From positions 10,435,521-10,499,520 of the forward strand of contig CP154954.1 in the NCBI GenBank assembly GCA_039621445.1: a stretch of 64,000 bases of DNA, in the 5' to 3' direction. Source of the DNA: Euglena gracilis (taxonomy: Eukaryota). The position numbers were made by a program, and so were the translations under genes. Positions 39,701 through 42,700 of the stretch are shown here, in pieces. The notes under the pieces were generated by a model. It did not search any database. It saw only the letters and a list, made by a program, of their open reading frames with translations, and was not told where the DNA came from. The first letter of the stretch is position 1. Each line of letters begins with the position of its first letter.

Positions 39701-42700
39701 GACGTGGTCAGGGTTTCGATTTTCATGCAAGCAGTCCAACCATTGCCGCCACTCACTCGCCGTCATATTGTGCTTTAGGGTGCTCAGTAAACCCAAAGAG
39801 CCCCCCAACCAAGAAAATAGACATTGGGGGGGGGGGGTCGAGCAAGGCGCTGAATGCGTTGAGTGAGGGTCCGACATATCCCTCACCGCCACCGGTACCC
39901 CCAGCAGTTTGCCACTGCGGATGTGATGGAGTTTCTGATGGCACTGCTGTCCGCCTAAAAATTCTCAGGATTTGGTTTTGTTAATTCTTTTTTGATTTTT
40001 GCACGGAAAGCCATGGCAAGCCACAGCCCGGCCTCGATGATCTGCGCAGCGGCGCGGTGCCCGGCCAACAGGGAAGGAACCGCCCGCTGCGCCCCGGCCT
40101 CGAATTGCTCCCGGGGATGCGCTGCACCGCGAAGAGAAAATGCTGTGCAAATACACCGTTGCACAGCACATGAATTTTGTCAGTGACACAAGCATGTTAT
40201 ATATAATTATATAACAATTATGTTTGTGTATTGGTTATTTTTGGGCAATGGGAAAACATTAAAGTCCAAATGAGCAGAAGCACAAAGCGGCATGGAACCA
40301 ACTTCTAAACTTCTAAAGGCGTTTGGGTGCAAGGGGTTTATCCACATCAATCTTTTTCTGTGATTTGTGTGTGCAAGTGCTTTGTGCTTTAAGAGTTACT
40401 GTGGTGTGTGTGTGTTTGTGGTGTGTGTGTGTTTTGTGTGTGTGTGTGGTGGGTGTGTGTGTGTGTGTGTGTTGTGTGTGTGTGTGTGTTGTGTGTGTGT
40501 GTGTGGATGTGTGTGTGTTGTGTGTGTGTGTGTGTGTGTGTGTGTGTGTGTGTGTGTGTGTGCGTTGTGTGTGTGTGTGTGTGTGTGTGTGTGTGTGTGT
40601 GTGTGTGTGTGTGTGTGTGTGTGTGTGTGTGTGTGTGTGTGTGTGTGTGTGTGTGTGTGTGTGTGTGTGTGTGTGTGTGTGTGTGTGTGTGTGTGCGTGT
40701 GCGTGTGCGTGTGCGTGTGCGTGTGCGTGTGCGTGTGCGTGTGCGTGTGCGTGTGCGTGTGCGTGTGCGTGTGGGTGTGCGTGTGCGTGGGTGTGTGTGG
40801 GTGTGTGGGTGTGTGTGTGTGTGTGTGGGGGTGTGGGGGTGTGGGTGTGGGGGGGGGGGTGGGTGGGTGGGTGGGTGTGGGTGGGTGGGTGTGTGGGTGT
40901 GGGTGTGGGTGTGGTGTGGGGTGTGGTGTGGGTGTGGGTGTGGATGTGGGTGTGGGTGTGGATGTGGGTGGGTGGGTGTGGGGGTGGGTGTGGGTGGGTG
41001 GGTGTGGGTGTGGGTGTGGGTGTGGGTGTGGGTGGGTGGGTGTGGGTGTGGGTGTGGGTGTGGGTGTGGGTGTGGGTGTGGGTGTGGGTGTGGGTGTGGG
41101 TGTGGGTGTGGGTGTGGGTGTGGGTGTGGGTGTGGGTGTGGGTGTGGGTGTGTGTGCGTGCGTGCGTGCGGTGTGTGTGCGTGCGTGCGGTGTGTGTGCG
41201 TGCGTGCGTGCGTGCGTGCGTGCGTGCGTGCGTGTGTGCGTGCGTGCGTGCGTGCGTGCGTGCGTGCGTGCGTGCGTGCGTGCGTGCGTGCGTGCGTGCG
41301 TGCGTGCGTGCGTGCGTGCGTGCGTGCGTGCGTGCGTGCGTGCGTGCGTGCGTGTGTGTGTGTGTGTGTGTGTGTGTGGCAAACGTCCACGCACAGCCCG
41401 ATTGGGAAGCCCACTGCAGCCTCTCCGCCTCCTTCCGCGCCGCCGACCTCTGGTTGTGCTTCGCGTATGTCAGCAGCTCCCCCCGCTCCCGCTCCTCCAC
41501 CACGCGGACTGCCCGGCGCGCCTCCTTCTCGTCCTGGCCGCACTTCTGCAACGCCGGGGACGGCGCCGGCAGGCGACCGCTGCCCGCAGGGCCCACAAAC
41601 TGTGGAGAGTTTTTCAGACGATAAAAAAAAAGTTGAGAAATACAAACAACTTCTCACCACCGCTTAAATGTCAGTGCCTCTTATTTTTTTTAAAAAAATG
41701 AGAAACTAGCCATACATCTTGGGAGTGGTGCGTGCATTTCTTGCTACTAGCAGTGAAAGGAAAAAGGAGAGGCCAATGTGATGCCAGGGTTTTTGCAGAG
41801 TTTAAAGCAAGAGAAATGCTTCAAGAAAAGAAGCAAGAGAAATGCTTCAAGAAAAGGTTGGTCGTTCCCTGCTCTTTGTTGTTGTACGAAAAGTCAGGCC
41901 TTAAACGAGGAGAAAATGTGGCAGAGAAACAATGCTGAAAAAAATTGGGCACCAGCAGCAGGTATGCCCGCAAACAAAGCTTAGATTCACTGTGAATAAC
42001 AATAATGAGAAAATTTGATTTGCAGTCAGGGTGCCAGGCTCAGATGAAAAACGGTGGGACACCTGCTGGGGCCAGTGCCCGCCTGAGCCCTTGCACATCA
42101 AACCGGACCACCCGCCGGAGACTGGCGTTCAGGTTCTCCTCCTCCTCCGGCGCGTCCCGCCACGCGGTGTACGCCCGCCACCATGCACCTATGGTCATCC
42201 AGAATCCCAGACCCAATCACGCCTCAGTCATGCCCAGTCACGCCCCAGTCACGCCCCAGTCATGCCCCAGTCACGCCCAGTCACGCCCCAGTCACGTCCC
42301 AGTCACGCCCCAGTCACGCCCAGTCACGCCGTGTCATTTCATAGGTGCTTGCCCGCCACACCCGCTGCAGCAGCTCCACGCCATGCTGCAGCCGCTCCGA
42401 CTCCTCCTCGATGGTGCGCTGCCAGCGGGCCGCTCCAGGGGGCGTTCCGAGTGGCCTGCAACCGCGGGCGCATTTTGGACGAACGTGAATTTGTTCGCAT
42501 GTAAGGTGAGAGACGTTTGAACATATGAGGCCTTGAGGCCGAAAGGAACAAAAGTGACCTTATTATCGCTGTGTGTAGTCTTACTGGTGGCATATACCGC
42601 GTATAAAATCGTCACGTGACACGACGTGACGATCGTGTCACGTCGCGATCACACGTGACACGGACGTGTGATCGCGTCCATGTCACACCTCCGCAGTGTG

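Follow-up and report, generated by a model that had tools for sequence, protein, structure and literature searches.

A window of 64,000 nucleotides (nt) from the Euglena gracilis genome (assembly GCA_039621445.1, contig CP154954.1, positions 10,435,521 to 10,499,520 of the forward strand; the window is this whole stretch and coordinates below are counted from its first letter) contains at 42182-42351 a sequence, designated here element A, that is a real and young MITE (miniature inverted-repeat transposable element) with an 8-bp target-site duplication (TSD). Our overall reading, to which we assign a probability of roughly 0.6, is that A has landed in an exon-like stretch of the minus strand and that insertions of a neighbouring group of elements ending in CAGG...CCTG would be born as nonconventional (NC) introns, removable from the transcript without leaving a scar. 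The reading turns on a simple sum: the spacers of 3 nt and 5 nt that separate the splicing motifs of euglenid NC introns from their two cuts together make 8 nt, the length of the duplication. As far as the sequence can tell, this is a real consistency and not an accident of one locus, because the CAGG...CCTG termini match both the E. gracilis intron consensus and the experimentally fixed spacers. Element A and its immediate surroundings comprise the following features:

42182-42351, plus strand: element A, a 170-bp non-autonomous element bearing terminal inverted repeats (TIRs), a MITE by its TIRs, core repeat and family copies.
42174-42181, strandless: left copy of the 8-bp TSD, cccgccac on the plus strand, identical to 42352-42359.
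42352-42359, strandless: right copy of the 8-bp TSD, cccgccac, identical to 42174-42181.
42177-42354, minus strand: predicted NC intron of 178 nt (3 nt, element A and 5 nt), a sequence-based prediction.
42355-42468, minus strand: upstream part of a putative last coding exon, an open frame with codon-position GC of 0.79/0.58/0.84.
42040-42176, minus strand: rest of the putative exon, running downstream to its stop codon (42040-42042), an open frame in the same codon phase after removal of the 178 nt, with codon-position GC of 0.74/0.52/0.78.

The initial annotation had placed a 170-bp TIR element between identical 8-bp repeats at these very positions, and our analysis bears it out. The two TIR arms (42182-42193 and 42340-42351) are 12 nt each, complementary at 11/12 positions (92%) and separated by 146 nt, and the core at 42212-42330 repeats an 11-nt unit about 11 times; this tandem repeat makes up most of the 170 nt, and the element has no coding capacity. 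The same unit recurs near 9.5 and 10.8 kb, where alignment recovered two more copies, B and C, lying in the opposite orientation to A, so that the family has three copies in the 64-kb window, each with different flanks:

10700-10881, minus strand: copy B, with a length of 182 nt and 83% identity to A across 176 aligned columns, with flank repeats matching at 6/8 positions and termini CC...GG.
9453-9571, minus strand: copy C, 119 nt, diverged but matching A at both ends, with flank repeats matching at 5/8 positions.

Euglenid NC introns carry CAG at +4 to +6 and CTG at -8 to -6 (PMC3935182, PMC11282704), CA and TG being their most conserved part, and in the majority the junctions carry direct repeats (PMC3935182); the E. 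gracilis consensus extends to CCAGG at +3 to +7 and CCTG at -9 to -6 (PMC11170887). Knock-in experiments have defined the code as 5'-N3CDG-/-CH'GN5-6 with a purine (R) opening the next exon, in which the 5' spacer must be 3 nt and the 3' spacer is 5 nt, 6 being tolerated; pairing beside the motifs is required, and fully synthetic introns with these features are spliced (PMC12501133). According to the same 2025 paper, 84.4% of introns are 'slidable' through short direct repeats, and the CDG/CH'G signature occurs in 61.2% of the annotated NC introns and is missing from the other 38.8%; therefore, introns without the signature do exist. NC introns supported by RNA number 16,151 in E. gracilis (PMC11170887) and about 466,000 in E. 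agilis (PMC12501133). This code has to be compared with the termini of five further TIR elements found in the window:

12302-12525, strandless: TIR element unrelated to A, termini CAGGC...GCCTG, TIRs 12/12, exact 8-bp duplication ggtggggg.
55142-55411, strandless: TIR element with termini of the 12302 type (CAGGCTTC...GAAGCCTG), exact 8-bp duplication atgcacat.
22285-22513, strandless: TIR element, termini CAGGG...CCCTG (11/12), exact 8-bp duplication gtgtggtt.
13662-13915, strandless: another copy of the 22285 family (82% identity across 210 columns), whose flanks match at 6/8 positions.
48816-49270, strandless: 455-bp TIR element, termini CACACC...GGTATG, flank repeats 7/8.

If each of the elements in the window is extended by 3 nt and 5 nt of its duplication and the motifs are read from there, four of the eight (those at 12302, 55142, 22285 and 13662) show CAGG at +4 to +7 and CCTG at -9 to -6 in either orientation, and those at 12302, 22285 and 13662 also offer a purine as the next base in at least one orientation. 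These four elements carry the complete published code by construction, and therefore the code would remove from them the element plus one copy of its duplication. The initial annotation had proposed, from A, that the intron motif is the end of the TIR and that its offsets mirror the TSD length. This proposal survives for the four CAGG...CCTG elements and in the 8-bp register, and it breaks down at A, which does not comply with the CDG/CH'G code. The arithmetic of duplication and offsets is sound, is supported independently by the neighbours and holds better for them than for A.

The 8-bp register was evaluated by scanning the window for TIR pairs (12-nt arms, at least 10/12 complementary, 30-3000 nt apart), which yielded 47,632 pairs, or 12,586 after a complexity filter. 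Exact flank repeats among the latter amounted to two at a block length of 7, five rows at a block length of 8 (0.19 expected) and none at 9. Three of the five rows are element A, 12302-12525 and 22285-22513, and the other two belong to a tandem/palindromic repeat (37864/37904-38131); with these last two discounted, the Poisson probability of at least three is about 0.001. Exact matches at block lengths of 10, 11 and 13 were set aside as shifted readings of the same loci or as lying inside an AAAAATGCGC tandem array. Over the eight TIR elements, the flanks are identical at 56/64 positions at block length 8, as compared with 13/32 to 40/96 (0.30-0.42) at lengths 4-7 and 9-12. Three of these elements had been chosen by their exact 8-mer, two from the list with one mismatch and three (B, C and 13662) by homology alone. 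The five not chosen by an exact 8-mer still reach 32/40 at length 8 against 0.15-0.35 in other registers, and the flanks of the three homology-chosen ones are identical at 17/24 positions (binomial P = 3e-6 at p = 0.25). Among TIR pairs anchored on CAG..CTG, 2/113 have an exact 8-bp flank repeat in register and 0/113 in each of 10 shifted controls; at a threshold of at least 6/8 the same 113 pairs give 4 in register and 0-4 in the controls, so that only the exact class stands out.

In the minus-strand (transcript) sense, the predicted intron of A reads ggg-CAAG...CATG-gtggc and is followed by a G as the next exon base (42176, a purine). Its borders are GG...GC, that is, not GT/GC-AG, and it has CA at +4,+5 and TG at -7,-6 (CAAG at +4 to +7, CATG at -9 to -6). 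The TIR helix, 12 bp with one A/A mismatch, is present in both the minimum-free-energy and the centroid folds. Because the two 8-bp repeats are identical, the cuts of the predicted 178-nt intron may slide over 9 equivalent positions, one of which is the 3+5 split; the sequence agrees with that split but does not single it out. A conventional GT...AG intron around A, with the donor after CGG and the acceptor AG inside the right TIR, was also considered and rejected as out of frame by manual count. Just upstream of the exon holding A (in the transcript sense), the stretch 42600-42720 is a dense nest of inverted repeats rich in GTCACG/CGTGAC, whose GTCACG core is also found in the 11-nt unit of A.

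When 178 nt (170 + 8) are taken out, the open frames of the minus strand at 42314-42559 and 42040-42216 come together as ...VWRAY..., precisely as the initial annotation had stated for the excision of the element and one TSD copy, an outcome which is true by definition for a young insertion. Codon-position GC at the hosts of both A and C stays in phase across the join only if the element and 8 nt are removed, and in the frames joined at A it suggests a real coding sequence around the element. On either side of copy C there is a plus-strand open frame, and the two join once 127 nt (119 + 8) are taken out, with a good codon-phase signal on both sides (GC 0.62/0.42/0.72 and 0.67/0.44/0.88); the flanks of C match at only 5/8 positions and it is hence older, and therefore the continuity of the frame at C has some weight. 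With respect to their putative host transcripts, A and C (predicted introns 42177-42354, minus, and 9450-9576, plus) point the same way, both being read from the ...ATGAAATGAC / ...GTGGAATGGC end, and a purine opens the next exon in that orientation only, two cases being too few to speak of a bias.

Several observations weigh against this reading. At +6/-8, A has an A/A mismatch instead of a G-C pair and reads CAA...ATG, failing the tested CDG/CH'G code, and by eye the signature appears in none of the other 8 slide positions; the literal N3-CAG...CTG-N5 rule that the initial annotation had applied to this locus is not borne out there, since only its CA and TG are present. This matters because single substitutions within CAG or CTG abolished the splicing of test introns (PMC12501133). 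The overall fold energy of the predicted intron is ordinary in comparison with shuffled sequences (z = 0.18), a value which is itself uninformative because the sequence is GC-rich. Frame restoration at A is no evidence of splicing because it comes automatically with a young insertion whose duplication is intact. The host frame of A was described from the outset as coding sequence; open frames and in-phase codon-position GC speak for this, but a Pfam search with 8 flanking frames returned 0 matches, leaving that frame without a domain, and a comparison of the downstream exon part with longer proteins found no homologue among 73 candidates, nor any protein derived from a transcript. The older copies are also problematic: the coding signal around B is weak, and B's ends were placed through an ungapped alignment with A and C while the flanks were visible; the ends of C read CAC...TTG in the transcript sense, again failing CDG/CH'G, a conventional in-frame GT...AG alternative with a C-rich tract exists there (9451-9610, 160 nt), and a HMMER search with the frame 9232-9477 beside C gave a single match, to a repetitive junk protein. 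As for the four CAGG...CCTG elements, they sit in sequence without a clear coding signal, and two partial copies of their group (43960-44226 and 55774-55989) have flanks matching at only 2/8 and 1/8 positions in registers tried by eye and unscripted. Finally, the flank-identity peak at exactly 8 that the initial annotation had predicted genome-wide, and that we looked for within the window, is evident in the eight elements and does not extend to TIR pairs in general: outside the clear elements, pairs with at least 5/8 identity number 17/348 in register and 7-23 in shifted controls, and there is no general excess at this threshold over all CAG/CTG- or CDG/CHG-anchored TIR pairs in the window.

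These points bear unequally on the alternatives. A could be an ordinary unspliced MITE that cuts the frame short, with a stop after 14 extra codons, or that lies within a pseudogene or non-coding sequence, its resemblance to the intron rule being irrelevant here. The broken motif, the host frame devoid of homologue and domain and a second minus-strand frame, equally open across the join over 113 codons, all favour this possibility, as does the exact duplication, which marks a recent insertion, so that intact frames downstream prove nothing. We nevertheless regard it as somewhat unlikely: A keeps at +4,+5 and -7,-6 the CA/TG core described as the best conserved feature of NC introns (PMC3935182), more than a third of the annotated NC introns (the 38.8% mentioned above) also lack the strict signature (PMC12501133), the 12-bp TIR helix and the exon-start purine satisfy the other tested requirements, codon-position GC is in phase on both sides and the older relative C lies between two frames that still join. 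Splicing of A itself is accordingly a prediction with about even odds, and it is the least certain step of the whole scheme because only the CA...TG core of the signal is present.

A different objection concerns the sum rather than the locus. The equality 3 + 5 = 8 may be a coincidence in which the offsets are set by a cutting enzyme measuring from the end of the helix, and NC introns as a class may not trace back to elements that make 8-bp duplications. Since 6 nt is also accepted as acceptor spacer, the sum is not fixed at 8 (PMC12501133), a mechanism of the RNase III type has been put forward for these introns (PMC12621601), the junction repeats of most NC introns are only short, and apart from a handful of elements the window has no general excess at register 8. 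Yet four independent elements within 64 kb combine CAGG...CCTG termini with 8-bp duplications, the sole documented newly gained NC intron has 8-nt repeats (PMC4770533), and decay with age of the repeat halves kept in introns would account for the short repeats of old ones; on balance we hold coincidence to be unlikely. That newly gained intron, in the gapC gene of one E. agilis strain, was read in 2016 as the footprint of break repair (PMC4770533), and the 8-bp repeats described here could by the same token be scars of intron gain by double-strand-break repair and not the product of staggered cuts by a transposase. The imperfect repeat of about 21 nt at copy B, running into its TIR, would fit such an origin. 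However, break repair predicts variable repeat lengths, whereas multi-copy families with conserved TIRs, differing flanks and a fixed 8-bp register in 8/8 elements are the signature of transposition, and we consider this origin highly improbable.

Under the reading that we prefer, element A inserted into a minus-strand stretch resembling a last coding exon, presumably transcribed, and duplicated 8 bp of its target. The genome holds several TIR families, all with 8-bp duplications, one group of which ends in CAGG...CCTG, and these termini are the very signals read by the Euglena NC-intron machinery, at fixed distances of 3 nt (5' cut) and 5 nt (3' cut). A fresh insertion of that group into an exon would be born as 5'-N3-CAG...(paired TIRs)...CTG-N5-3', its two spacers together amounting to a single duplication copy; excision from the pre-mRNA would take out the element plus 8 nt and bring back the original reading frame without a scar, and the excised circle would carry the element and one whole duplication. 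It is tempting to go further and to see NC introns as a class as the RNA-level shadow of CAGG...CCTG transposons, cut at 3 and 5 nt because exactly one duplication is removed, although it is itself an inference which of the two, the 3+5 rule or the duplication length, gave rise to the other; this extension we hold only tentatively, at a little under an even chance. If it were true, every exon insertion would be harmless from birth and the splicing code would be tied to the staggered cut of a transposase, which would explain both the approximately 70% of nonconventional introns in these genomes and why most of them are 'slidable'.

Some details of the A family deserve mention in their own right. 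The flank repeat of copy B extends past 8 bp, as an imperfect direct repeat of about 21 nt (10679-10700 / 10869-10890), and about 13 nt after its right-hand repeat resemble its own left TIR (about 10/13 by eye); this long repeat could reflect insertion into the remnant of an older copy or some other origin of this copy, which is probably not an intron of its own. The possible conventional intron at 9451-9610 would read G/GTCACG ... CTCTTCCCCTTGCAG/C, with copy C at its very 5' end, and the locus could be a conventional, a nonconventional or an 'intermediate' intron.

The CAGG...CCTG elements have more in common than their ends. Internal blocks made up of long runs of C and of G, together with a core that has the palindrome ...TTTTCGGCGC...GCGCCGAAAA..., recur in 12302-12525, 13662-13915, 22285-22513 and 55142-55411, and the sequences suggest that these elements form one larger MITE group spread across the non-coding DNA of the window. 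Partial copies of the group occur near 38940-39040, 43960-44226, 45140-45200 and 55774-55989; all four were dropped from the counts because their ends could not be set. A motif pairing of CAGG..T-rich with A-rich..CCTG found 6 pairs, 3 of them already known and the other 3 with flanks matching at only 1-2/8 positions. Two CAG...CTG TIR pairs, at 56051-56478 (11/12) and 28942-29418 (10/12), have 8-nt flanks matching at 6/8 and 5/8 positions and may be older elements of this type. The window also contains long microsatellites of the TG/CA and GTGC types (11950-12300, 40313-41650, 55420-55516 and 63066-63464), and the elements 12302-12525 and 55142-55411 both lie at the edge of such arrays. A search for paralogous empty sites within the window gave spanning matches only from microsatellite flanks and from the extended repeat of B, and Rfam on the whole window gave 0 matches.

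The superfamily of these elements can only be inferred from their ends and duplications. The hAT label of the initial annotation is a reasonable guess: the 8-bp duplication that it invoked does fit hAT, and also fits Merlin, P and some Mutator-like elements. The terminal consensus of hAT TIRs is YARNG; CAGGG (22285 and 13662) agrees with it, while CAGGC (12302 and 55142) and the CATGC/CAAGC of A depart from it, both at the fifth base. A transposase domain did not score above the Pfam cut-off in 10 open reading frames (ORFs) of the window (9 of the 10 longest and the 17th), hence no hAT transposase was found among them. An assignment to another superfamily able to make 8-bp duplications, be it Merlin, P or a Mutator-like group, is a possibility that falls somewhat short of being the favoured one. 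Two Merlin families with 8-bp duplications have been described in E. gracilis (PMC8101967), which counts against hAT; of the Merlin characters, the elements here share the 8-9-bp duplication, but they end in CA (CC in B) with arms of about 12-14 nt, whereas Merlin TIRs end in GG and measure at least 24 bp (PMC8101967). The literature search retrieved no paper tying any superfamily to these elements.

How much of this is new has to be judged against a literature in which the origin and the removal mechanism of euglenid NC introns have been open questions since the 1990s. A MITE origin of NC introns has been in print since 2014 (PMC3935182), the equation of TIRs with CAG/CTG and the existence of 'TSD-like' repeats are given in a 2024 review (PMC11282704), and the 8-nt repeat of the gapC intron is also published; in this respect the novelty claimed by the initial annotation was overstated. 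The MITE hypothesis is still qualitative, however, and the available passages on it name no element family, duplication length or superfamily. Full-text searches, whose scope took in neither supplements nor the J Mol Biol paper of 2021 about intron circles, found the equality of 3 + 5 with the duplication length in no paper and, within the same scope, no named euglenid element family with these termini and no superfamily assignment; in the accessible text of the 2025 paper (PMC12501133) the term 'TSD' is absent and the sole 'target site' is the knock-in locus. What we present is therefore a partly new synthesis of published facts and not a new kind of system. The window offers named families whose duplication is fixed at 8 bp and whose termini equal the splicing code, and it turns the hypothesis into predictions that can be counted: introns supported by RNA should show a peak at register 8, copies outside genes should share the TIRs, and there should be an autonomous partner element. 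It also allows the 8-nt repeat at the new intron, hitherto ascribed to break repair, and the strict 3- and 5-nt spacers, whose purpose had no explanation, to be interpreted anew.

Comparison with known systems places the predicted intron of A closest to the euglenid NC introns (Milanowski 2014, 2016; Nomura 2025), with which it shares non-GT/AG ends, TIRs that join the ends, CA/TG, the exon purine and slidable repeats, the full CAGG...CCTG motif being found in its four neighbouring elements. It differs from them in having A for G at +6 and A for C at -8, and its excision is a prediction; moreover, as far as the accessible parts of the published work go, junction repeats are treated as an annotation nuisance or as 'TSD-like', and the 3 + 5 spacers are not equated with an 8-bp duplication. 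Like hAT-derived MITEs, the elements described here have an 8-bp duplication, short TIRs starting with CA and no coding capacity, although the terminal bases fit the hAT consensus in only 2/8 of them and the 10 ORFs revealed no hAT transposase. With the Merlin elements of E. gracilis they have in common the duplication length and, in some cases, internal tandem repeats (PMC8101967), the TIR ends and lengths setting the two apart as detailed above. The most instructive parallel is offered by the introners of Micromonas and other algae, short TIR transposons that turn into introns, with a splice signal made up partly by the element and partly by the duplication, so that the principle of removing the element plus one duplication is already known for spliceosomal introners (PMC11282704). 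Introners are removed by the spliceosome at GT/GC-AG borders, with 3-nt duplications in the example given (PMC11282704), whereas the elements of this window combine an 8-bp duplication and noncanonical ends with a removal machinery thought to be non-spliceosomal. If our reading is true, these would be the first transposon-born, scarless introns removed by a non-spliceosomal route, in parallel to the algal introners.

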